A stretch of DNA of 64,000 nucleotides from Candidatus Marinacidobacterales bacterium (GTDB taxonomy: Bacteria > Acidobacteriota > Vicinamibacteria > Marinacidobacterales > SMYC01): NCBI GenBank assembly GCA_965224085.1, contig CBDCYI010000011.1:1376001-1440000 (forward strand), written 5' to 3'. The translations under genes and the position numbers were made by a program. Below, one piece after another: positions 14,531-26,879 of the stretch. The notes beneath the pieces are model-generated. The model was not told the DNA's origin and made no database searches. It saw only the letters and a program-made list of their open reading frames with translations. Numbering within the stretch: position 1 is the first letter of the stretch; each line of letters starts with the position of its first letter.

Positions 14531-14607
14531 TGGTCGGGGCGGCAGGATTTGAACCTGCGACCCCCTGATCCCGAACCAGGTGCTCTACCAAACTGAGCCA
14601 CGCCCCG
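14531..14607 (-). tRNA. tRNA-Pro (anticodon CGG)
   Basis: Reverse complement CGGGGCGTGGCTCAGTTTGGTAGAGC..CCTGG-TTCGGGA-TCAGG..GGTTCAAATCC..CGCCCCGACCA. Confidence 0.95.
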
Positions 14608-14679: not shown

Positions 14680-15054
14680 TTATTTATCTGCCTGTTGCTC
14701 CGCGAAATCTCCGAGGATTGGGAGCTTGAACATCTGGTGCTGAAACGCCTTTACGAAGCAGATGATCCAGACCACGAACATCACGAGCGGGAAAAACATG
14801 AGCACGATCCAGCCCAGGATCGGGATCGTCCCGAGCACCATGCTGATCCCCGTCGAGACGACAGCGAGCGCAATCGCCTGGATCGAGTGGAATCGCACGA
14901 AGCGATTCTTGTTGTACGGCTCGAGGACCAGCCAAACGATCGCGACGATCACGAGATAGGCGAGCGCTCCGGCAACGTTTTCGTCCAGACTGCCCACTTG
15001 CGCGGTTCCGGAGCTCGCGGCTTGCGGTGGTGGTGGTTCGGATGCCTTGCTCAT
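14680..15054 (-). CDS. DUF4870-type small membrane protein
   Basis: LDENVAGALAY, NRFVRFHSIQ, FKLPILG; native ATG at 15054. Confidence 0.85.
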   Translation of the reverse strand: MSKASEPPPPQAASSGTAQVGSLDENVAGALAYLVIVAIVWLVLEPYNKNRFVRFHSIQAIALAVVSTGISMVLGTIPILGWIVLMFFPLVMFVVWIICFVKAFQHQMFKLPILGDFAEQQADK

Positions 15055-15073
15055 TAGTGTCTCTTCCGGGGAT

Positions 15074-15596
15074 GGTCGAAACCCCTCGCCTTTAGGCGAA
15101 GAGAAGATCGTGGTATTGTGGTCGCGTGCGTCACTACAGGCACGGAGCGCACACGAAAACGGACCTAAAAGCGCACATCGTTTGGATACCGAAATATCGT
15201 AAAAAGGTTTTGATCGGTCCAGTAGCGGTTCGTGTGCGCGATCTGATTCGTCAGATCGCGATGGAACATGAGCTGCACATAATCTCGGGTAAGGTTGCAC
15301 GCGACCACGTCCACGTGTTCGTATCCTACCGACCACACCAGGACCTGAGTACGATCGTGCAGTGGCTAAAAGGAATAAGCTCCCGAGTACTCCTTCAGGA
15401 GTTTGCTCACCTGAGGAAGAAGTTTTGGGGCCGGCACTTCTGGGCCCGAGGATATCTGGCGGTGAGTTCAGGAAGCATAACGGACGAGATGGTAAAGGAG
15501 TACATAGACTCCCAGGATGGCGAGCCTCTTCACGACGACAGTCAATTTCCAATTGACAGCCCTTGAAGCCACCGCCTTCTAGGCGGTGGTTGTTCA
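15074..15596 (+). mobile_element. IS200/IS605-family element (tnpA only), copy 2
   Basis: Direct copy offset 2196 bp from copy 1; one difference seen (G12955 vs A15151). Confidence 0.9.
15126..15566 (+). CDS. tnpA: Y1 HUH transposase TnpA
   Basis: Same as copy 1 except residue 9 (H vs R). Confidence 0.95.
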   Translation: MRHYRHGAHTKTDLKAHIVWIPKYRKKVLIGPVAVRVRDLIRQIAMEHELHIISGKVARDHVHVFVSYRPHQDLSTIVQWLKGISSRVLLQEFAHLRKKFWGRHFWARGYLAVSSGSITDEMVKEYIDSQDGEPLHDDSQFPIDSP

Positions 15597-15629
15597 CTTT
15601 TCTCCCGTCGTTGGGTTTTGCGACGGGTT

Positions 15630-15659
15630 ATTCTAATCGAACGTACGAACTGGGCTCAA
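15630..15659 (-). promoter_or_regulatory. Candidate sigma70 promoter of the DUF4870 gene, now separated from it by IS copy 2
   Basis: TTGAGC-18 bp-TAGAAT on the minus strand. Confidence 0.4.
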
Positions 15660-15696
15660 GCGTCGCGTGCAAAAACTTGCATCGCCGCGGGTGGAG

Positions 15697-16452
15697 CTAT
15701 TTCGTGCCGTTGAAGCGCAGGTCCCACGACTCGAGCTCGTCGAGCGCTTTGTAATTCGTGAAGTCGAATTGGAGCGGCGTGACAGAGATGTAGTGGTTAC
15801 GGAGTGCATGAATGTCCGACATCCCGTTTTTTTCCCAGCGGCTGAAGCCTTGCTTGATCCAGTAGTAGACGCGTGACCGCGGGTCGACGCGCTCTTCGAC
15901 TTTGGCCCAGTAGTCGCGCCGTCCTTGGCTCGTGACGCGGACACCGTGAACCTTTCCTCTGGGGACGTTGACGTTCAAGAAGGTCCTCCGGTTCCATTCC
16001 TTTTTCTCGACCATGGTGCGAACGATCTCGGAGGCGAAGCCTGCCGCGGCACTGTAGTCGGCGTCTTCGTCCTTGCTGGCGAGCGAGACCGCGATCGACG
16101 GAACGCCTAGCATCGCGGCTTCACGCGCACCCGCCACCGTTCCCGAGTAAGCGATGTCATCACCTACGTTCGCGCCGTGATTGATGCCCGAGACAACGAT
16201 GTCGGGGGGGTGGGGCAGAAGCTTCCCAACGGCCAAGTTCACACAGTCCGCGGGTGTGCCTTCAACGAAGAACGTCCGGGCTTCGAGGTGCTCGAATCGC
16301 AGCGGCGCCGAAATCGTGAGCGCGTGGCTCACGGCGCTCATCTCGCGCAAAGGCGCCACGATGGTGACTTCGCCCAATTCTCGAAGTCTCTCGGCAAGCG
16401 CCTTGATCCCGGGCGCGTGCACGCCGTCATCGTTCGTGACCAGGATATTCAG
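15697..16452 (-). CDS. surE: 5'/3'-nucleotidase SurE (probable CTG start)
   Basis: NILVTNDDG, GTPADCV, SGINHGAN.G....YSGTV, ISVTPL. Confidence 0.95.
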   Translation of the reverse strand: MNILVTNDDGVHAPGIKALAERLRELGEVTIVAPLREMSAVSHALTISAPLRFEHLEARTFFVEGTPADCVNLAVGKLLPHPPDIVVSGINHGANVGDDIAYSGTVAGAREAAMLGVPSIAVSLASKDEDADYSAAAGFASEIVRTMVEKKEWNRRTFLNVNVPRGKVHGVRVTSQGRRDYWAKVEERVDPRSRVYYWIKQGFSRWEKNGMSDIHALRNHYISVTPLQFDFTNYKALDELESWDLRFNGTK

Positions 16453-16541
16453 AATGGCGACACTCCTTCCGTGTTGGCCGTTTGGAGCTCGAAGCTCGGT
16501 AGCGTCCCTTCAACTACCCATCAGAAACGTTGGGTTCAGAA

Positions 16542-16618
16542 TGGTCGGGACGGCCGGATTTGAACCGACGACCACTTGCACCCCAAGCAAGTGCGCTACC
16601 AGGCTGCGCTACGTCCCG
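16542..16618 (-). tRNA. tRNA-Pro (anticodon GGG)
   Basis: Reverse complement CGGGACGTAGCGCAGCCTGGTAGCGCA-CTTGC-TTGGGGT-GCAAG..GGTTCAAATCC..CGTCCCGACCA. Confidence 0.95.
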
Positions 16619-16692
16619 ATCCCATTCCGCATACTGCGCCGTCCTCGTGGAAGGTTCCGCGACGATAGCACGTCGTCAGATCACGGTCAACG

Positions 16693-17088
16693 CTACTTCT
16701 CGCTCGCTTTCAAATCGCGGTCGAGCATATCGAGTATTCCGTGCAGCTCTGCCTTGATCTCTTTGACTTCGTGTTCGAACGTCGCCTCACCGTTCGATTT
16801 ATTCGCTGCCGGTGTTGCCACCGCGCCTTTTAACTGTTCTTTCATTTCCTGCTCCAGCTTTTTCTTAGCCCCCGCGATCGTGAATCCCTCTTCGTATAAG
16901 AGCGTTTTGATCCGCTGGATCGTCTCGATGTCGCGACGGCGATAAATCCGCTGGCCGGAATTGTTCTTGGCGGGTGCGAGTGCCGGAAACTCCGACTCCC
17001 AGTATCGAAGCACATAAGGTTGGGTGTCGGTGAGCTCGCACACCTCTCCGATTTTGAAAAAGAGCTTGCTTGGGATCTGGGAGTCCAC
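16693..17088 (-). CDS. MerR-family regulator (ihfA-linked)
   Basis: FKIGEV....YVLRYWESEFP.L.P.K..GQR.Y, LLYEEGFTIAGAK. Confidence 0.9.
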   Translation of the reverse strand: MDSQIPSKLFFKIGEVCELTDTQPYVLRYWESEFPALAPAKNNSGQRIYRRRDIETIQRIKTLLYEEGFTIAGAKKKLEQEMKEQLKGAVATPAANKSNGEATFEHEVKEIKAELHGILDMLDRDLKASEK

Positions 17089-20324: not shown

Positions 20325-22775
20325 TCATGAAAGCGTCATCGGGTCCACGTCGACGAGCATCACGCGCGCGAGTGTCTCGTCTTTCAAAAGCCCGCGCAGC
20401 CAATGCCGGAGCCGCGCGTGCTCGCGGCGCGGAAGCTTGATCAGAATCTGACACCGATAGCGACCCGCGACTTTCGAGCGGACGGCAAAAGCCGGGCCGA
20501 GAATGCGTACGCCCGCGACCGGCTCTCGCTCGAGAAAGCTCGCCGCGCGTCGCGCCTCTGCTGTCGCTTCTCGCATCGAGCGGCCTTCAACAATGATGTT
20601 GATGACGCTCACCGCGGGCGGGTACAAAAGCGCGCGCCGAAACTTGCGCTCGGACTCGTAGAAGCCCTGATAGTCCTGCGCTTGGGCGAACTGTAAGCTG
20701 TAGTGATCGGGCTGGTAGGTCTGGATGAGCACTTCCCCCGTACGGTCACCTCGACCAGCGCGGCCCGCCACCTGCGTCAAAAGCTGGAAAGTTCGCTCCG
20801 CGGCCCGAAAATCGGGAGCGCCAAGACCGTTATCCGCGCCCAGGACACCCACGAGTGTGACCGCGGGAAAATCGTGCCCCTTCGCCAACATCTGAGTCCC
20901 GACGAGCACGTCGATCTCACGCGACGCGAACTTCGCAAGGAGCGACTCGTAGCCCCCTTTGCGCCGCATCGTGTCGCGGTCCATGCGAGCGACGCGGCTT
21001 TCGGGAAACATCTCTTTCACGAGGGTTTCGAGCCGCTCCGTCCCGTAGCCCACCGAACGCAAGTACTCCCCTTCGCAGACATCGCACTTCGTCGGCTTCG
21101 GCCGCCCGAGTCCGCAATAGTGACAGACCGCGAGCGTCCCACCCTTGTGAAGCGTCATCGCTACGCTGCACTCACTGCACATCAGGGCGACGCCGCACTG
21201 TCGGCAAAGAAGCTGGCCGGCGAAGCCTCTTCGGTTCAGGAGCAAGAGTGCCTGCTCGTCTGCGTTGAGACGTTGTTCGAGCGCGCCTCGGAGTGGCGCC
21301 GAGATCACTGTGTTGGGGCCCTCTTCCCGCACCACCTCCTTCATGTCTATGAGCTCCACCGCCGCCAGGGGCCGGCTCGCAATACGCTCGGGTAAGCTGA
21401 CCAACCGATAACGTCCTTCCAGAGCACGGGTGAACGTTTCTAGGGACGGTGTCGCGGAGCCGAGCACCACCACAGCGCCGTCGTCCCGCGCGCGCACGAT
21501 CGCGACGTCGCGTGCGTTATAGCGCGGGCTTTCTTCCTGCTTGTACGAGCCCTCGTGCTCTTCGTCCACGACGACGAGGCCGAGATTTTCGAGCGGCGCC
21601 AAGATAGCAGCCCGCGCACCCACGACGACGCGGGCCTCGCCATGACGTATACGCCACCACTCGTCCCGCCTCTCTCCGGACCCGAGCGCGCTGTGCAAGA
21701 TCGCAACGCGCTCGCCGAACCGGGAATAAAGAAGTGCCGCGAGCCGTGGCGTGAGCGCGATCTCGGGGACGAGGATAAGCACACTCCGGCCGCGTGCGAG
21801 CGCGTCCTCGGCCGCATGTAGATAGACTTCGGTCTTCCCGCTTCCGGTAACGCCGTGCAGCAGGAGAGGCTCGAAGCTCCCCTTTGCGAGCGCTTCCCGG
21901 ATCGCGATGACGGCAGCGCGTTGGCTCTCGGCAAGATCGAGCTTCACAGACGGTTCCGCGCCGAGGCGCCGCCAAGGTGTTTGAGGTACGGTTTGAGCGA
22001 CGAGCTCGATGTACCCTTTTTGAGAAAGCCGCGGAAACGGGCCTCGCTCGATGGAGAGCTCGTTGCGTATCGTATGTAGTGGAACGGGATCGGTGGCGAC
22101 CGACAGGAGCGTGAGGATTCGGGACGTCGTCGGGTGCAACTTTTCCGTTTCGAGCGCTCGGCGTCCACCTTCAGTGATGGCGGCCACGCGCATCGTGCGG
22201 CCGCCTTTCGTTCCGCTCGGCGCGCGGCATCGGACGAAGCCTTTTCTCAAAAGCGCTGCGATCGTCCCCGCGACATTCTTCTTCCCCACGGCCTTCGCGA
22301 TAGCGCGCGCCGTCATCGGGCGATCGAGCAGTTCGAGAACGCGTTTCGACAACCCCCTGACGTCCCCTATTTTGACGTCGCCCATTTTGACGTCGCCCAT
22401 TTCGCGGCGCTCATAGAGCGCTCTCTCCTCACGAGGTGTCTCGGGCGGCAACATACCGCGGCAAACGAGCCCGGGTGAAGCAAGGTAGTAATCCGCAATA
22501 AAGCGACTGAGCTCAAGCTGCGAAGGTGTCAACACCGGCTCTTCATCAAGAAGCGTCAAAAGCGGTTGCAACGTGATGTCGGATGGAAGCTCAGGCACCG
22601 TGTCCCCGACCTCGGTGATGCAGCCAATGAGCACGCGGTGCCCAAAGCGGACACGGACCCGCATCCCTGGCTGCGCACTCAAAAGAGGATCGGGAACCCC
22701 GTAGGAGAACGTCCGAAGGAGCGGAAGCGGAAGCCCGACCTCCGCGAAGGCGGAGAAGTTAGGAAGACTGCCCAT
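20325..22775 (-). CDS. priA: Primosomal protein N' (PriA)
   Basis: GVTGSGKT, VPEIALT, DEEH, SATPS, Cys-rich Zn motifs, GTQMLAKG.DF, QVAGRAGR, DVDP. Confidence 0.97.
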   Translation of the reverse strand: MGSLPNFSAFAEVGLPLPLLRTFSYGVPDPLLSAQPGMRVRVRFGHRVLIGCITEVGDTVPELPSDITLQPLLTLLDEEPVLTPSQLELSRFIADYYLASPGLVCRGMLPPETPREERALYERREMGDVKMGDVKIGDVRGLSKRVLELLDRPMTARAIAKAVGKKNVAGTIAALLRKGFVRCRAPSGTKGGRTMRVAAITEGGRRALETEKLHPTTSRILTLLSVATDPVPLHTIRNELSIERGPFPRLSQKGYIELVAQTVPQTPWRRLGAEPSVKLDLAESQRAAVIAIREALAKGSFEPLLLHGVTGSGKTEVYLHAAEDALARGRSVLILVPEIALTPRLAALLYSRFGERVAILHSALGSGERRDEWWRIRHGEARVVVGARAAILAPLENLGLVVVDEEHEGSYKQEESPRYNARDVAIVRARDDGAVVVLGSATPSLETFTRALEGRYRLVSLPERIASRPLAAVELIDMKEVVREEGPNTVISAPLRGALEQRLNADEQALLLLNRRGFAGQLLCRQCGVALMCSECSVAMTLHKGGTLAVCHYCGLGRPKPTKCDVCEGEYLRSVGYGTERLETLVKEMFPESRVARMDRDTMRRKGGYESLLAKFASREIDVLVGTQMLAKGHDFPAVTLVGVLGADNGLGAPDFRAAERTFQLLTQVAGRAGRGDRTGEVLIQTYQPDHYSLQFAQAQDYQGFYESERKFRRALLYPPAVSVINIIVEGRSMREATAEARRAASFLEREPVAGVRILGPAFAVRSKVAGRYRCQILIKLPRREHARLRHWLRGLLKDETLARVMLVDVDPMTLS
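22358..22402. repeat. In-frame 15-bp tandem repeat x3 in priA (MGDVK-MGDVK-IGDVR)
   Basis: TGACGTCCCCTATTT then TGACGTCGCCCATTT twice. Confidence 0.9.
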
Positions 22776-23466
22776 CGAGCAGTCGTCGAATGAGCTTCAT
22801 GTCCTGCCAGCACTCGCGCTTTTTTTCCGGATTACGAAGCAGATAGGCTGGATGAAGAGTCGGTACGAGCTTAGCACCGCGATACGGATAGATGCGGCCT
22901 CGAATGCGCGTGATCCCTTCATCCGTCCGAAGCAAATTCAACGCCGCGACCCGCCCAAGCGCACAGATGACTCTAGGACGAATAGCATCGACCTGCCGAT
23001 CAAGAAACGACCGACACTCCTCCACCTCCTCTGGCTCCGGGTCCCGATTCCGTGGCGGCCGACACTTCACAATATTCGCGATATAAACATCGTCTCGACT
23101 CAAATCAATAGCACTGATAATCTTCGTAAGAAGCTGCCCCGCAGGCCCAACAAAAGGAATTCCCTGCCGATCTTCTTCAAACCCCGGTCCTTCCCCAACA
23201 AACATCAAATCAGCGCTGGGATCACCAGCACCAAAAACAAGATTCGTCCGCTTCTTATGAAGCACACACCGAGTACATTCCCCAAGATCCGCCCGAACCT
23301 CGGAAAGCGTCTCCCGACCCCGAGGCGCCCTCTCCTGAACACCCGCGGAAAGCTCTTCCACCGGCGCCACCGCAACCGCTCGCCGCTCAAACCCAAGCTC
23401 CGTCATCGACCGATAGAACAAAATCCTCTCCCGAATTTGCCCCACGATCCAACTCCGTTCACTCAT
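22759..23466 (-). CDS. Uracil-DNA glycosylase family 4
   Basis: CxxC, VGEGPG..ED..G.PFVG.AG, N.VKCRPP.NR.P, HPAYLLR. Confidence 0.95.
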   Translation of the reverse strand: MSERSWIVGQIRERILFYRSMTELGFERRAVAVAPVEELSAGVQERAPRGRETLSEVRADLGECTRCVLHKKRTNLVFGAGDPSADLMFVGEGPGFEEDRQGIPFVGPAGQLLTKIISAIDLSRDDVYIANIVKCRPPRNRDPEPEEVEECRSFLDRQVDAIRPRVICALGRVAALNLLRTDEGITRIRGRIYPYRGAKLVPTLHPAYLLRNPEKKRECWQDMKLIRRLLDGQSS

Positions 23467-23506
23467 GCTCTTCCACGCAAAGAAAAGAAACCAGTCACTC
23501 TTTTTT

Positions 23507-23607
23507 AACGCAACGAAGCAAAGGAAAGACTCTCAAAGTATCAAATCCACTCTCGTTTTTTGTGTCTTTCTTCTCTTCGCGCCTTCGCACCTCTGCGTCT
23601 TTGCGTT
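23507..23607. repeat. Imperfect palindrome with octamer tandem arms
   Basis: Left arm AACGCAACGAAGCAAAG; right arm CTTCGCGC-CTTCGCAC-CTCTGCGT-CTTTGCGT-T (reverse complement starts AACGCAAAGACGCAGAG). Confidence 0.75.
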
Positions 23608-23618
23608 ACGCTTTTCTC

Positions 23619-24242
23619 TTATTCTCTAAATGACTCCACAATCGGCCGAATTCGCTCTTCGAGTAGCCGCGGCCGTGTCCTCTCCGCGAGCACGATCGCC
23701 TTCAGTAGCTCCGAAGTTCGTTCCACGCTGTCATTGACGAGCACGTAGTCGTAGTCCTTATAATGATAAATTTCGTGGCGAGCTTCTTCTAGCCGCCCCA
23801 AGATTACCTCGTCCGAATCTTGGCGCCGTCCGCGGAGCCGCTCTTCCAGAACCTCGAACGACGGGGGCAGGACAAACAGCGTAATGGCGTCCGGCTGCGC
23901 CTTGCGCACTTGCGCGGCCCCTTGGACGTCCACGTCCAAAAGGATATCCTCCCCAGACGCCCGCACTTGCTCGGTCACGATCTTCGACGTCCCGTAGAAG
24001 TTGCCGTGGACTTCGGCCCATTCCAGGAACTCGCCATCTTCGATTTTCGCGCGGAACACGTCCTTGGTCACGAAGTGATAGTCGATGCTGTCGCGCTCAG
24101 TCCCGCGGACGGGACGCGTCGTGAACGACACCGAAAAGCACACGTCATCGAGTGTGTCGAGAAGGCGCCGAACGAGCGTCGTCTTGCCGGAGCCCGAGGG
24201 CGCCGAGATGACGAAGAGGTTGCCTCGCCGTGCGGTCGTCAT
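23619..24242 (-). CDS. gmk: Guanylate kinase
   Basis: SAPSGSGKTT, S.TTR..R..E, FLEWAEVHGNFYGT, DVQGA. Confidence 0.97.
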   Translation of the reverse strand: MTTARRGNLFVISAPSGSGKTTLVRRLLDTLDDVCFSVSFTTRPVRGTERDSIDYHFVTKDVFRAKIEDGEFLEWAEVHGNFYGTSKIVTEQVRASGEDILLDVDVQGAAQVRKAQPDAITLFVLPPSFEVLEERLRGRRQDSDEVILGRLEEARHEIYHYKDYDYVLVNDSVERTSELLKAIVLAERTRPRLLEERIRPIVESFRE

Positions 24243-25117
24243 TCGATATTCTGAACCTGTTCCCGGACTCTCTCGATTTCGGATTTCATCGCAATCACTT
24301 GCTCCGCAATCTCAGCGTCTTGACTCTTCGAGCCTAACGTATTTACTTCTCGGTTCATCTCTTGGACGATGAAGTCGAGCTTCTTGCCACAAGGCCCGGC
24401 CGACGACATCGTCCCTTTCCAGAGCTCGAGGTGGCTCCGGAAGCGCGTGATCTCTTCGGCGATATCGGCCCTCTCCACGAGACGGGCGACTTCCATTGCG
24501 ATGGCGGAAGGCTCGAGAGCGGAGCCGACGAGCTCCGCGACTTTGGCCGCTAGCTCCCCGCGCCGCTCCTCACGCCTTGCGTTGCTGCGCGCCTCGATGC
24601 GATCGACTAAAGACGCGAGCTCCGTCGTGCGGCGCTCGAGATCCGCCGCCATCTCGGCGCCTTCGGCCGCGCGCATACGCTCGAGCTCCTCGAGCGCCTG
24701 GCCGAGAGCCGGCTCGAGCGCGTCCCACAGGCTGGTGCCTTCGGATAGATCACGCTCTTTCACTTGAAAAGCCGGCGAAAAACCAACCAAGTCCCGAAGC
24801 TCGAGCGACGCCGCGACACCGATTTCTTTCCCTATCTCGGTAGTCACCCGTACGAACTCCGAAAGCAAAGGCCGGTCGACCTCAATTTGGTGCGTGCTCT
24901 CGCCTTTCGGCTTGAGGTGCAGGCTGACGTCGACTTTTCCGCGGCCGAGCGACTGCGCGATGCGATCGCGCACTTTCTTGTCGATCGTCGTGAGCCCGGC
25001 CGAGCCGCGTGTCCGCACGTCGAGATATCGGTGGTTAACCGTACGAATCTCGACGACAACTTCATGGGCGTCGTTCTCGATTCGGGCTCGTGAGAAACCC
25101 GTCATGCTTTTCAGCAT
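24239..25117 (-). CDS. yicC: YicC/YloC-family endoribonuclease
   Basis: MLKSMTGF, VNHRYLD, RGKVD, GKKLDF..QEMNRE.NT.GSK, REQVQNIE. Confidence 0.95.
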   Translation of the reverse strand: MLKSMTGFSRARIENDAHEVVVEIRTVNHRYLDVRTRGSAGLTTIDKKVRDRIAQSLGRGKVDVSLHLKPKGESTHQIEVDRPLLSEFVRVTTEIGKEIGVAASLELRDLVGFSPAFQVKERDLSEGTSLWDALEPALGQALEELERMRAAEGAEMAADLERRTTELASLVDRIEARSNARREERRGELAAKVAELVGSALEPSAIAMEVARLVERADIAEEITRFRSHLELWKGTMSSAGPCGKKLDFIVQEMNREVNTLGSKSQDAEIAEQVIAMKSEIERVREQVQNIE

Positions 25118-25124
25118 CGTTCGC

Positions 25125-26879
25125 TCATGTGTCGCTCGTCACGGGTTCGGCCGCAGCACCCTGAGAGAACTGAAGCTCGTAGAGCCGTCGATAGACCCCT
25201 CCCGAGCGGACGAGGAGCTCCTCTTGGGTTCCTGTCTCCTGCACTTGGCCGCCCTCTATGACGACAATGAGATCCGCTTTTCGGATCGTCGATAGCCGAT
25301 GAGCGATGACGAGCGTCGTGCGGTTCGCCATCAAGTTCTCTAGAGCTCGCTGGAGGAGCGCTTCCGACTCCGCGTCGAGCGAGCTCGTGGCCTCGTCGAG
25401 CACGAGAATCGGAGGGTTTTTCAATATGGCGCGGGCGATAGCGATCCTCTGCCGCTGGCCGCCGGAGAGCCGTTGTCCGCGCTCGCCGATGACGGTGTCG
25501 AAGCCGTGTTCTAGCTCCCGAATGAACTCGAGAGCGCAAGCAGCCTCCGCCGCCGCCACGAGCGCGTCTTCCGAGACCGAGCTCAGGCCGTAGCCGATGT
25601 TGTTGCGCACGGTGTCGTTGAAAAGGATCGTCTCTTGCGTCACGAGCCCGATTTGCCCGCGAAGCGACGATAGCGTCGCCTCGCGAATATCGACGCCATC
25701 GAAAAAGATGACGCCGCCGGTCGGGTCGTAGAAGCGCGGCACGAGGCTCGCGAGCGTGCTCTTCCCTGCCCCGCTCGTGCCAACGAGGGCGACGACTTGC
25801 CCTGCTTCGATGACGAGGTTCACATCGTGAAGAGTCGCGCCTTTGCCGTCGTCATACACGAAGTCGAGGTTCGAAAACTCGATGCTCCGCGAGAGCGGCT
25901 GGAGCTCGACAGCGTTCTCGACTTCCTGGATGGAATGCTCGACGTCGAGCACAGCAAAAATCCGACTCGCGGCCGAGAGCGCTTGCTGGAGGGTGGCATT
26001 CACGCGGGAGAGCTTCTTCACCGGCATGTACATCATGAAGAGCGCCGCGATAAAGGATGAAAACTCGCCTGTCGTCATCGTCGATGCCGCGATGCGACCG
26101 CTCCCGTACCATAAGGCCGCCGCCATCCCGACCCCGCCAACGAGCTCCATGATGGGAGGCATCGTCGAGATGACGCGGGTGATGCGCATATTGGTCCGGA
26201 AGAGGCTGTCGGTGGCAGCGACGAAGCGTTTCGTCTCGGACGCCTCCATGCGGAAAGCCTTGACGATGCGGCTTCCCGAGATCGTTTCGTGTAGGACGTT
26301 TGTGATGTCGCGCCAACGCTCGAGCCCGGTATCCGTCCGACGCCGGAGCTTACGGCCAAGGGTCACGAGCGGGTAGATAGCGAGGGGAGCGATCACGAAA
26401 CAGAAAATGGCGAGCCGCCAATCGTAATAGAACACGAGCGTACCGTAGCCGAGGAGCGCAAAGCTCTGCATGAGCAGATCGCCCATAGCACCGGAGACCG
26501 CTTGCTGGATCTTCTCGACGTCGTTCGTGATGTGACTGATGAGCGTTCCCGTCGGCTGGCTCTTGAAGAAGCTCACCGATTGGCGGATCACGTGCTGGTA
26601 GAGGACGTTCCGAAGGTCCATGACCGTCCGCTGCCCCACCCAGCTCATCAGATAGGTCGAGAAGTAAGAAAAGAGCCCTTTCGCGAGATAGAGCAGGATG
26701 ATGAGCACCGCGACCTGAGCCAAGTTCTCGTTCTGGATCAGAACGTCGTCAAAGACGGGCTTGATGAGATAGGCGAGCCCGCCCGAGGTCGCGCCAAAAC
26801 CCACCATCGCAAAAGAGGCCAAGAGGAATCGCCCCCTATATGGCCAAGCGTAAGAAAGTAGGCGCCGGAACTCTTTCAC
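25125..26879 (-). CDS. msbA: MsbA-like ABC exporter (TMD+NBD)
   Basis: 6-TM domain, GTSGAGKS, LSGGQRQR, LDEATS, IAHRLST. Confidence 0.85.
   Translation of the reverse strand: MKEFRRLLSYAWPYRGRFLLASFAMVGFGATSGGLAYLIKPVFDDVLIQNENLAQVAVLIILLYLAKGLFSYFSTYLMSWVGQRTVMDLRNVLYQHVIRQSVSFFKSQPTGTLISHITNDVEKIQQAVSGAMGDLLMQSFALLGYGTLVFYYDWRLAIFCFVIAPLAIYPLVTLGRKLRRRTDTGLERWRDITNVLHETISGSRIVKAFRMEASETKRFVAATDSLFRTNMRITRVISTMPPIMELVGGVGMAAALWYGSGRIAASTMTTGEFSSFIAALFMMYMPVKKLSRVNATLQQALSAASRIFAVLDVEHSIQEVENAVELQPLSRSIEFSNLDFVYDDGKGATLHDVNLVIEAGQVVALVGTSGAGKSTLASLVPRFYDPTGGVIFFDGVDIREATLSSLRGQIGLVTQETILFNDTVRNNIGYGLSSVSEDALVAAAEAACALEFIRELEHGFDTVIGERGQRLSGGQRQRIAIARAILKNPPILVLDEATSSLDAESEALLQRALENLMANRTTLVIAHRLSTIRKADLIVVIEGGQVQETGTQEELLVRSGGVYRRLYELQFSQGAAAEPVTSDT

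Follow-up and report, generated by a model that had tools for sequence, protein, structure and literature searches.

Strand-specific cytosine depletion over a predicted uracil-DNA glycosylase gene in an acidobacterial genus

Transcription-associated strand asymmetry was reportedly the subject of experiments in Escherichia coli by Beletskii and Bhagwat, and is said to have been analyzed by Francino and Ochman. In eukaryotes, GC-skewed R-loop zones occur at CpG-island promoters and immunoglobulin switch regions, and both AID somatic hypermutation and engineered targeted hypermutation by deaminase–RNA polymerase fusions place C-to-T changes on the non-template strand near the transcription start, fading downstream. 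Asymmetric cytosine deamination is presented, in passages of one source, as the accepted main driver of bacterial skews (PMC2031905), and passages of another describe how dCas9 R-loops in yeast deaminate the displaced strand and how a persistent R-loop raises cytosine deamination there (PMC6411842).

Here we describe a cytosine-depleted zone in the window, by which we mean the whole stretch of 64,000 nucleotides that was analyzed. Its features are the following.

22759..23466, minus strand: udg, gene for a predicted family-4 uracil-DNA glycosylase of 235 aa (ORF and profile matches); core of the coding-strand C depletion
20325..22775, minus strand: priA, primosomal helicase of 816 aa, downstream of udg (Pfam domains); composition ordinary past about codon 115
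22431..22775, minus strand: priA codons 1 to ∼115, over which the anomaly tails off downstream (40-codon windows)
23619..24242, minus strand: gmk, guanylate kinase, upstream neighbor of udg (PF00625, E 3.2e-48); composition ordinary save in the last codons
23622..23651, minus strand: last ∼10 codons of gmk, probable upstream onset of the zone (change-point fit)
23467..23618, no strand: gmk–udg spacer of 152 bp with a palindromic REP/MITE-like repeat element (alignment of genus genomes)
22852..23508, plus strand: antisense ORF of 218 aa opposite udg; not a gene but a consequence of codon structure

The udg product matches PF03167 (E 6.5e-41; 140.1 bits, cut-off 24.3) and TIGR00758 UDG_fam4 (223.8 bits, cut-off 125.3), the latter with residues 64–230 over profile positions 1–171 of 173. 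With family models matched full-length above curated cut-offs, it is predicted to be a family-4 uracil-DNA glycosylase. The translation contains GECTRC, GEGPGFEED, KCRPP, and HPAYLLR, which may include the iron-sulfur cysteines and the catalytic motifs (GE.PG and HP.) of this family. The 5' end of priA, whose product carries the Pfam domains PriA_3primeBD, DEAD, PriA_C, and Zn_ribbon_PriA, overlaps the 3' end of udg by 17 bp.

The strand asymmetry of udg is real and extreme. Third positions over the whole gene are A.10, C.12, G.42, and T.36, against C.36–.44 and T.12–.15 in the neighbors priA, gmk, yicC, and an msbA-like gene. An earlier note on this DNA had counted third positions by hand, and its counts proved exact both for 60 udg codons at 23101–23280 on the minus strand (T 31, C 3, G 20, A 6) and for a control at 1500–1679 on the plus strand, frame 0 (C 27, T 7). 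A sliding-window analysis places the udg region at the GC-skew extreme of the 6.87-Mb genome: its value of -0.368 is the most negative of 68,632 windows of 600 bp, and the region again ranks first with 450-bp windows (-0.392). Among 5453 ORFs of at least 120 aa, udg has the lowest third-position C (C3) and the largest difference between G/(G+A) and C/(C+T) (0.572; z 7.25, next 4.65). The departure affects one strand only, C/(C+T) being 0.25 but G/(G+A) 0.82; other low-C ORFs of the genome, unlike udg, are AT-rich on both measures, and the runners-up for asymmetry are mostly apparent spurious wrong-frame ORFs. The coding strand holds 248 G (35%) and 144 C, with 19 runs of at least three G versus two C-runs, 14 of the 19 G-runs lying within the first 330 nt.

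All genomes concerned are metagenome-assembled, which would be in keeping with chance or an assembly artefact. That explanation is refuted by the recurrence of the same state in five species-level genomes and in two independent metagenome contigs, by nine runs from three studies that contain 87–100% of the sampled words of segment 22300–24300, which includes udg, and by the z score given above.

Compared with deamination-driven strand asymmetry in bacteria, the locus agrees in substitution type, strand, and sign, the coding (leading-strand) sequence of udg having gained G and T. It differs in magnitude, with a skew of -0.37 to -0.39 over ∼1 kb against a background of ∼-0.03, in being one gene plus a tail inside a long co-directional gene string, and in being limited to one genus and no longer operating. 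Because the operon is co-directional with replication (judged from cumulative skew in G000 and from dnaA positions in G002 and G003), the local skew has the sign of the background skew, at more than 10 times its size.

With GC-skewed R-loop zones, udg shares a non-template strand of positive GC skew, G-runs concentrated at the 5' end, a polar profile that decays over ∼1 kb, and C-to-T change on the strand that an R-loop would displace. Unlike them, it fails the QmRLFS rule (G 35% versus 40%), shows no deaminase motif, and belongs to a bacterium with coupled translation. It resembles the targets of AID and of engineered hypermutation in its non-template C-to-T changes, which begin near the start and fade downstream, but no deaminase, sequence motif, or current activity was found for the locus, and its changes accumulated slowly under purifying selection. 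Like horizontally acquired atypical genes, udg is a single gene with codon usage far from that of the genome; in contrast to them, it departs on one strand only, and its synteny and phylogeny are vertical.

Relative to related genes, C3 is lowered and T3 raised in udg, whereas neither A3 nor the G:A ratio of twofold sites has changed. The odds of T over C are shifted by a factor of 10.1 at twofold and 10.3 at fourfold sites, equally in all codon families, including those read by the same tRNA. Whichever base precedes or follows the site, the shift amounts to 4- to 11-fold, and spontaneous deamination therefore fits better than a motif-specific enzyme. When substitutions were polarized, as the earlier note had advised, udg showed a C-to-T excess on the stem of the genus: of 28 C3 sites conserved in ≥ 70% of outgroups, 14 became T, versus 20 of 149 in the flanks, here gmk, yicC, and the part of priA past codon 110 (Fisher p 4.8e-5). 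The pattern is that of strand-asymmetric deamination, a coding-strand C-to-T excess without a matching G-to-A excess.

At fourfold sites, one third of the lost C was replaced by G, and G-ending codons are frequent (CGG in 17 of 31 Arg, GGG in 10 of 18 Gly), with AGR Arg codons not raised (3/31). Second codon positions of the variable N-terminal linker moved in the same direction, with C2 of.19–.22 in the genus versus.19–.37 in 13 outgroups and T2 of.29–.33 versus.17–.28. In the conserved core, codon positions 1 and 2 show no change, the shift being confined to synonymous sites and this loose linker. A single hypermutation burst would have altered these core positions as well; the shift was built up from numerous individual substitutions, with purifying selection acting on each of them.

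C3 of udg is.12–.23 in all five species of the genus and.35–.49 in all 15 other orthologs of the order; three of the genus lineages have drifted back to.18–.23. The gene order yicC-gmk-udg-priA is kept across the order (20/20 loci). The UDG protein tree recovers the genus as a clade (support 99) whose sister group is L006 and L007, as in the trees of flanking genes; the stem length of the genus is 0.17 here, 0.22 in the priA tree, and 0.15 with the flanks concatenated. UDG identities follow those of the neighboring genes at every depth. Asymmetry is below 0.2 in 78 of 80 metagenome loci and 78 of 80 genome loci, and among these 160 loci of two collections the anomaly was not found outside the genus, which itself supplied the only high-asymmetry loci.

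The earlier note had rejected the import of a single gene, and synteny and the UDG tree uphold that rejection; the discordant udg phylogeny with recent transfer that it named as counter-evidence did not appear, the trees being concordant. Horizontal transfer of udg is thus ruled out by concordant trees, kept synteny, and the lack of a donor among the 160 loci. The udg gene is native and was passed down vertically, and its shift arose on the stem branch of the acidobacterial genus.

A narrower exchange would be homologous replacement of ∼1 kb, taking in udg and the beginning of priA, in the ancestor of the genus, by DNA from a T-rich, C-poor donor that was either an unsampled relative or an ssDNA replicon (a phage or rolling-circle element). 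Recombination tracts are typically ∼1 kb, and ssDNA phages have T-rich, C-poor coding strands; a tract of ∼1 kb with one sharp edge agrees with such an event. We nevertheless hold it to be quite improbable: tree position, stem length, and identities at every depth all agree with the flanking genes, no donor-like sequence occurs among the 160 loci, and replacement would merely shift the origin of the skew to another replicon.

The asymmetry peaks at udg codons 40–140 (∼23050–23350). Its upstream onset is sharp and lies ∼30 nt before the udg start codon, a two-change-point fit placing it at gmk codon 197–198 in four of the five genus genomes; over the final 27 codons of gmk, G3 is.63 and C3.21 within the genus, versus.41 and.30 in outgroups. 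The downstream edge is diffuse, the zone dying out toward the 3' end of udg or reaching as far as ∼115 codons into priA, with fitted ends at udg codon 208–212 (two genomes), priA codon 40 (two), and priA codon 95 (one). Over priA codons 1–120, five consecutive 40-codon windows lie at the 91st–99.5th percentile for asymmetry among 76,154 genome windows, and ordinary values return from about codon 101–140 onward. A dip at priA codons 60–105 recurs in each of the five genus genomes and is missing from outgroups L006–L008. In the stem test taken by itself, the tail in priA is not significant (3/20 versus 20/149, p 0.74).

The shift, local, strand-specific, and of C-to-T type, thus runs across a gene boundary into priA, as the sequence had first suggested, and the T-rich codons reported there are real, though weaker than in udg. 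Two other parts of that description are not confirmed. The 3' end of gmk, which had been counted in, has a weakly raised T/(C+T) (87th–89th percentile) and no strand asymmetry (33rd–63rd percentile), and the zone is not centered on the repeat element at 23507–23607, as its peak lies within udg and its onset at the udg start.

That palindrome had also been offered as the cause, through repeated cutting or invasion followed by strand-biased mutation, either ssDNA deamination or error-prone repair. It does adjoin the zone, and the two genomes of lowest C3 (G000,.12; G002,.14) are the two with a gmk–udg spacer, a pairing that represents at most one phylogenetic event, G000 and G002 being sisters in the udg tree. 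The element itself, the ∼125-bp interior of the spacer (DNA fold -18.8 kcal/mol, z -1.9), is private to G000 among the five anomaly carriers: the G002 spacer of 26 bp matches both ends of the G000 spacer, and in G001, G003, and G004 the gmk stop overlaps the udg ATG, leaving no spacer. Elsewhere in the genome its right arm recurs as eight partial copies, of which seven have flanks with an absolute GC skew of ≤ 0.18, an outcome that the earlier note had itself named as counting against its proposal. The remaining copy, C4:1810769, has a 350-bp flank skewed with the same polarity (GC skew -0.32, AT skew +0.46), but this is an A-rich, low-complexity palindrome partner (GC 0.47) rather than a C-depleted coding region. 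With the anomaly peak 150–450 bp away as well, we consider a causal role for the element very improbable indeed; the repeat is a later insertion unrelated to the anomaly.

Within the genus, terminal branches show no current C-to-T excess in udg (5/18 versus 61/245 in the flanks, p 0.78), and T-to-C changes there number 14/55 versus 25/67 (p 0.18). When patterns seen only in L001 were excluded, C-to-T changes per C site were 3/16 in udg versus 44/228 in the flanks, and T-to-C changes per T site 11/52 versus 11/53. Close strains, represented by contigs of four runs, gave one udg difference among 40 listed of 367 over 17 kb, with 1.7 expected at uniform density; the C>T excess that reads had been expected to show is not seen in this set. 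Because udg and the flanks change at equal rates per site, from C to T as well as from T to C, the anomaly is a slowly decaying relic, and the region is drifting back at ordinary rates. The strand-biased mutational process first proposed therefore stands as a local, strand-specific C-to-T-type shift, stripped of its link to the repeat and of present activity, and, with no present C-to-T excess, a deamination mechanism must be placed in the past.

Our preferred reading, which we hold tentatively with a probability of roughly 0.45, is that cytosines were deaminated locally in excess, over a long period in the past, on the strand that serves as non-template strand and at the same time as lagging-strand template. 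Spontaneous conversion of C to U, read as T, would have accumulated on the coding strand of udg, non-template in transcription and lagging-strand template in replication. Roughly 1 kb would have been single-stranded for unusually long, beginning ∼30 nt before the udg start codon and weakening along transcription, and this regime would later have ended. An internal transcription start, a stable R-loop, or an open complex in the stem lineage would fit, and the placing of such a transcription start before udg is speculative. A consensus scan returned no minus-strand promoter-like site upstream of udg, and among the sequencing runs none recorded as RNA contained the stretch. Our own implementation of the m1/m2 rules described in part of the QmRLFS source (PMC4489302), which ask for an initiation zone of G clusters and, no more than 50 nt farther on, ≥ 100 nt with ≥ 40% G on the non-template strand, yielded 356 merged loci in the genome but no R-loop-forming sequence in udg, the nearest locus being 22181–22367, inside priA.

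Past deamination is favored by the spread beyond the reading frame into priA codons 1–120 and to position 2 of the linker, by the polar shape with its sharp onset and diffuse downstream end, by the affected strand being the one for which exposure is expected, and by a T-to-C rate like that of the flanks, which selection for low C would suppress. Against it, the third of C that became G at fourfold sites needs a long-acting secondary GC3 pressure, and the zone's upstream edge falls where the udg reading frame begins, a position that gene-level selection would explain as well. In addition, transcription-induced deamination is reportedly ∼4-fold in E. coli experiments, and a sustained 10-fold local excess exceeds this.

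The main rival holds that past selection, acting on nucleotides or on the RNA, disfavored C in the sense strand, which amounts to favoring an antisense strand that is rich in C, poor in G, and unstructured. Several purposes are possible: the udg-priA message could be a poor Rho substrate, sparing priA from polarity; any antisense transcript could be an ideal Rho target; transcription of a uracil-repair gene could be tied to a high UTP:CTP ratio; or rare T-ending codons could throttle UDG synthesis. Rho loading (rut) sites are long, C-rich, G-poor, unstructured RNAs, and the genome encodes Rho (719 bits). An antisense RNA of udg would be C-rich and G-poor and is predicted to be far less structured in the genus (-0.25 to -0.32 kcal/mol per nt) than in outgroups (-0.38 to -0.46), so that composition and low predicted structure would fit a putative rut-like antisense (-0.25 kcal/mol per nt). 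Selection would also account for the position of the upstream edge, for the replacement of C by G where synonymous ("anything but C"), and for the retention of the low-C state in five species, and we estimate the necessary fixation bias at about ln 10, within the known range of codon selection.

We nonetheless judge such selection unlikely. The T-to-C rates above give no sign of maintenance, and three lineages have drifted back. The sense mRNA is predicted at -0.38 to -0.42 kcal/mol per nt versus -0.37 to -0.46 in outgroups, which leaves an unstructured message unsupported. AGR codons, which would remove C from Arg, are not raised, the equal shift across codon families follows no tRNA logic, and the zone spills into priA and nonsynonymous linker positions. 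A literature search found no known system of this kind.

The antisense strand of udg also carries the 218-aa ORF listed above, which has no NCBIfam match. Antisense ORFs of more than 200 aa lie opposite udg in 10 of 13 outgroup orthologs that are without the anomaly, and by frame arithmetic position 1 of the antisense codons faces the fast-changing position 3 of the sense codons.

The genome under study (G000; 6.87 Mb, 60% GC, 12 contigs) carries the uracil-DNA glycosylase gene udg within the following string of genes (window positions; the window is C11:1376001-1440000 of G000):

25125-26879, minus strand: msbA-like gene
24239-25117, minus strand: yicC/yloC-family endoribonuclease gene, upstream of gmk (TIGR00255, 235 bits)
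23619-24242, minus strand: gmk
22759-23466, minus strand: udg, encoding a full-length member of uracil-DNA glycosylase family 4 (TIGR00758 at 223.8 bits, cut-off 125.3)
20325-22775, minus strand: priA

Hand counts in an earlier note on this DNA, according to which C-ending codons nearly vanish from udg, were reproduced exactly: 31 T-ending and 3 C-ending among the 60 codons at 23101-23280, and 27 C-ending and 7 T-ending in a control stretch. Taken over all its codons, udg has a third-position composition of A.10, C.12, G.42, and T.36; in the four neighbors of udg, C is.36-.44 and T.12-.15. Nowhere else in the genome is GC skew as negative as at the udg locus (-0.368 among 68,632 windows of 600 bp), which also ranks first among 450-bp windows (-0.392). 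An absolute skew of 0.33 is attained in only five windows, of which three belong to the udg locus and two to IS-like repeats. Among 5453 ORFs of 120 aa or longer, called with a crude longest-ORF caller, udg shows both the lowest third-position C (C3) and the largest asymmetry, defined as G/(G+A) minus C/(C+T) (0.572; z 7.25, next 4.65). The ORFs ranked behind it for asymmetry are mostly spurious-looking, Arg-rich, and wrong-frame. Since the remaining low-C genes of G000 are AT-rich by both measures, the one-strand character of udg is unique within this genome.

The other top GC-skew windows of G000 lie in multi-copy ORFs of a 312-aa family and a ~417-496-aa family, probably IS transposases (C4:1864501, C11:660801, C4:61551, C9:116301, C5:802951, C11:626851, C4:1683051, C11:289701, C5:1763351, C4:1482551, and C11:765101). 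Their coding strand is C-rich and G-poor (C3.40-.50, G3.15-.22), a polarity opposite to that of udg.

We measured the extent of the anomaly against 76,154 40-codon windows taken from a set of 3721 long, GC-rich ORFs. Of the ten windows in udg, the first eight (codons 1-180) fall at the 99.9th-100th percentile. For T/(C+T), the remaining two reach the 99th and 98.7th percentile, and for asymmetry they reach the 99.5th and 91st. The T-rich tail into priA that the note had described is borne out (asymmetry percentiles 99.5, 95.9, 91.4, 99.5, and 98.1 over codons 1-120), with composition back to normal from about codon 101-140. The 3' end of gmk, which had been counted as part of the same anomaly, reaches just the 87th-89th percentile for T/(C+T), without asymmetry, and is not confirmed as belonging to it. 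When C/T third positions are fitted with two change points, the onset falls at gmk codon 197-198 in four of the five genomes of the genus and the end at udg codon 208-212 in two genomes, priA codon 40 in two, and priA codon 95 in one. The zone measures ~0.7-1.05 kb, with a sharp upstream and a diffuse downstream edge. Its peak lies at udg codons 40-140 and not, as first proposed, at the intergenic repeat. Just downstream of the zone end, priA contains a 15-bp unit repeated 3.0 times (window 22358-22402, minus strand, 93% matches) that encodes the GDVKM-like repeat MGDVKMGDVKIGDV; tblastn spans suggest 6-8 residues fewer in this part of priA in the other genus genomes.

The gmk-udg junction differs within the genus. 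In the alignment, the gmk stop overlaps the udg ATG in G001, G003, and G004; G002 has a spacer of 26 bp that looks like an empty site, and only G000 has a spacer of the G002 type enclosing a ~125-bp palindromic element. The right arm of the element consists of CTTTGCG-type repeats with eight other partial copies in G000, seven of which have normal flanks (absolute GC skew ≤0.18), while the eighth adjoins an A-rich, low-complexity palindrome partner. As the element is absent from four of the five carriers of the anomaly and seven of its eight other copies have ordinary surroundings, the suggestion that the palindrome caused the C depletion fails by the note's own standard, and the two are unrelated. 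The repeats form a family of short intergenic sequences of CTTTGCG-like heptamers that end in GCGTTACGCTTTTCT, often followed by ATATTGATC, with an inverted partner at some copies (REP/MITE-like). Copies lie at window 23565-23618 and at C11:1484919, C4:1810769, C11:787827, C5:746078, C4:1816868, C5:1053338, C5:736377, and C4:1641247 of G000. Rfam gave no match within 21500-25500 at E values up to 1.

An assembly artefact was rejected, as the anomaly is present in five species-level genomes and in two independent metagenome contigs; in addition, nine runs of three studies contain 87-100% of the words sampled from window 22300-24300, an interval that includes udg. No RNA run is listed as containing this interval. 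The earlier view that udg was not imported also holds, given its conserved gene order and a tree placement and stem length in line with its flanks. The order yicC-gmk-udg-priA is conserved in 9 of 20 order-level loci, and the other 11 have gmk-udg-priA intact in a 1.5-kb flank that stops short of yicC. UDG identity parallels neighbor-gene identity at all depths, and in the UDG tree the genus is monophyletic (support 99) and sister to loci L006 and L007, with a genus stem length of 0.17 (priA, 0.22; concatenated flanks, 0.15). A udg homolog occurs in all 31 genomes, a tally that takes in the unpublished G027 and is the only result here to draw on it.

The anomaly itself is confined to the genus, here sampled by only five species, all MAGs. 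All five have C3 of.12-.23 and T3 of.26-.36, compared to.35-.49 and.07-.19 in 15 other udg orthologs of the order. Among 80 metagenome loci, asymmetry of.35-.43 was seen only in two genus loci, matching the species of G001 and G004 (remaining 78: -0.21 to +0.19); among 80 genome loci, a set overlapping the first, only G002 and G004 exceed 0.3 (other 78: -0.10 to +0.17). This distribution places the origin on the genus stem.

Every codon family of udg is shifted. Twofold pyrimidine sites have a C/T count of 12/46 in udg compared to ~42/16 in outgroups, and fourfold sites change from.43 to.13 in C, from.10 to.31 in T, and from.38 to.48 in G. The T:C odds are shifted ~10-fold in both classes alike, and fourfold A and twofold G:A are the same as in outgroups, so that the additional G cannot be put down to deamination of adenine (A to G). 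At third positions with C in at least 70% of outgroups, the genus has T at 14 of 28 sites in udg compared to 20 of 149 in the flanking genes (gmk, yicC, and priA beyond codon 110; p 4.8e-5). Because C/T is shifted 4- to 11-fold for each 5' and 3' neighbor base, a motif-specific deaminase or methylase is ruled out.

Codon positions 1 and 2 of the conserved UDG core are the same as in outgroups, and only six conserved residues were altered on the genus stem. In the variable N-terminal linker, second positions have lower C and higher T than in 13 outgroups. The shift operates at the level of nucleotides and not of codon choice in itself. Had it come in one hypermutation burst, constrained positions would have changed as well; it must have accumulated through many separate events under purifying selection.

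Present-day turnover was assessed within the genus, where third-position differences of 8-30% are unsaturated, from pyrimidine patterns across the five genomes and from changes on terminal branches, with small counts for each individual branch.

Third positions of udg with pyrimidines in all five genomes
TTTTT: 41 sites
CCCCC: 13 sites
T to C in one lineage: 14 sites
C to T in one lineage: 5 sites

C/T changes in udg and in the flanks
C to T, all terminal branches: udg 5/18, flanks 61/245, p 0.78
T to C, all terminal branches: udg 14/55, flanks 25/67, p 0.18
C to T, without patterns confined to locus L001: udg 3/16, flanks 44/228, p 1.0
T to C, without patterns confined to locus L001: udg 11/52, flanks 11/53, p 1.0

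Per-site change rates in udg are indistinguishable from those of the flanks, and since T sites outnumber C sites, the net flow is now towards C; C3 has drifted back to.18-.23 in G003, G001, and G004. Third-position pyrimidine differences between G000 and G002 (9/94 in udg, 48/348 in the flanks) argue against a 10-fold mutation excess that is still active, with a wide confidence interval. In close strains, as seen in contigs of four runs that hide rare variants, udg holds one difference among the 40 rows listed, out of 367, over 17 kb, compared to 1.7 expected at uniform density. A first parsimony count of ongoing C to T in G000 (6:0) and G002 (5:0) was superseded by the site patterns; we distrust it because it used a C-rich outgroup with near-saturated synonymous sites and a tree with G000 basal. 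Flank trees place G000 basal (support 85-87), in conflict with the udg tree, which joins G000 and G002 (support 87); under the latter rooting, C to T may continue in these two genomes, judging by four TTCCC sites and no CCTTT site.

We consider the zone best read as the product of a past, long-lasting local excess of spontaneous cytosine deamination, to which we give a probability of roughly 0.45. This reading draws on the one-strand pyrimidine-transition signature without sequence-context dependence, the spread into priA and into unconstrained nonsynonymous sites, and the polar shape of the zone combined with the absence of maintenance today. The excess would stem from unusual single-strandedness that began just upstream of udg and decayed downstream, under a regime that would have stopped before or early in the genus radiation. 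Its weak points are the absence of any excess in present lineages, the negative promoter scan and R-loop call described below, the fourfold gain of G, which needs a secondary GC3 pressure beside deamination, and the large size of a sustained 10-fold effect.

The main rival, in which selection either removed C from the sense RNA or favored an antisense strand rich in C and free of structure, appears rather unlikely. The alignment of the upstream zone edge with the gene, the ‘anything but C’ pattern of substitutions, an antisense RNA predicted to have very little structure, and a Rho encoded in the genome would suit it, but T-to-C reversion proceeds without any brake, Arg AGR usage is not altered, the anomaly extends into priA, and the sense mRNA is predicted to be as structured as its outgroup orthologs. 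Selection for an unstructured sense mRNA was accordingly rejected, predicted folding energy per nucleotide equaling that of outgroups. An antisense gene opposite udg was also rejected (no family match; antisense ORFs of equal length in outgroups). A link to the co-operonic YicC/YloC endoribonuclease was dropped: according to the abstract of a 2026 preprint on its specificity, the enzyme prefers small structured RNAs, and no preferred base is named there. The true rho lies at C5:1370239-1371477 of G000, and a second Rho-like gene at C4:347837-348964 scores 460 bits, short of the 509 required by TIGR00767.

For the deamination reading, the strand affected is the non-template strand of transcription and, since the operon is co-directional with replication, also the lagging-strand template. 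Co-directionality is based on the cumulative skew peak of G000 at C11:1,198,551 and on dnaA positions in G002 and G003, and its presence in three genomes rejects a head-on replication-transcription conflict. The local skew shares its sign with the background (about -0.03) at an amplitude more than 10 times larger. The cumulative GC skew maximum of G000 is probably the replication terminus, ~200 kb from the window; dnaA is on contig C5 (1829989-1831308), and the udg operon is likewise terminus-proximal in its replichore in G002 and G003. A consensus promoter scan found a single plus-strand site and no minus-strand site upstream of udg, and terminator-like sites in the scanned region were no more frequent than by chance. 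Under the R-loop rules of QmRLFS (PMC4489302), udg is not called (G 35%, 40% required).

Strand asymmetries in bacteria are usually weak and genome-wide. Compared with those driven by deamination, udg is an extreme, local, and dated version, and its zone is similar in shape to eukaryotic R-loop and hypermutation zones. Among the open-access papers listed by our searches on these themes, none describes an island of this kind and size within a native gene of a bacterium. It is conceivable, but quite improbable, that we see the fossil remains of an ancestral, transcription-polar udg/priA deamination zone, the bacterial equivalent of the skew zones known from somatic hypermutation or R-loops. Such a zone may have been self-reinforcing, in that a G-rich transcript would form a stabler hybrid, prolong non-template exposure, and so increase skew. 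A connection with the proteins encoded by its two genes is conceivable as well: uracil-DNA glycosylase repairs uracil in single-stranded DNA, and PriA restarts replication at R-loops and D-loops. That a gene removing deaminated cytosine lies just upstream of priA is striking, but for a single locus this may be coincidence.

Thus, one core gene carries a skew more than 10-fold above background, the strongest in a 6.9-Mb genome, genus-wide and neutrally decaying. If the mutational reading is true, it is a dated natural record of a prolonged ~10-fold strand-specific C-to-T excess over ~1 kb of a bacterial chromosome, bearing on local mutation-rate variation, transcription-associated mutagenesis, and bacterial R-loops, and its decay across five lineages is a small natural experiment on the speed of relaxation to normal composition. 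If selection is responsible, udg would be one of the few known genes whose message was selected for nucleotide content over its whole length. As a practical warning, this native gene would be flagged by composition-based transfer screens.

The contigs of the four runs show a further feature at window 15000-16700, where summed depth exceeds that of the remaining sequence 10- to 60-fold in every run (in X3, 1586 compared to ~25). Contig joints and loose ends are numerous at 15057-15101 and 16619. There are tRNA genes at 14534-14607 and 16545-16618, and the segment may be a multi-copy or mobile one that inserted beside a tRNA. Behind position 16651, the contigs of runs X8 and X6 carry 12 additional bases that those of X3 and X9 lack, a strain-level length polymorphism.
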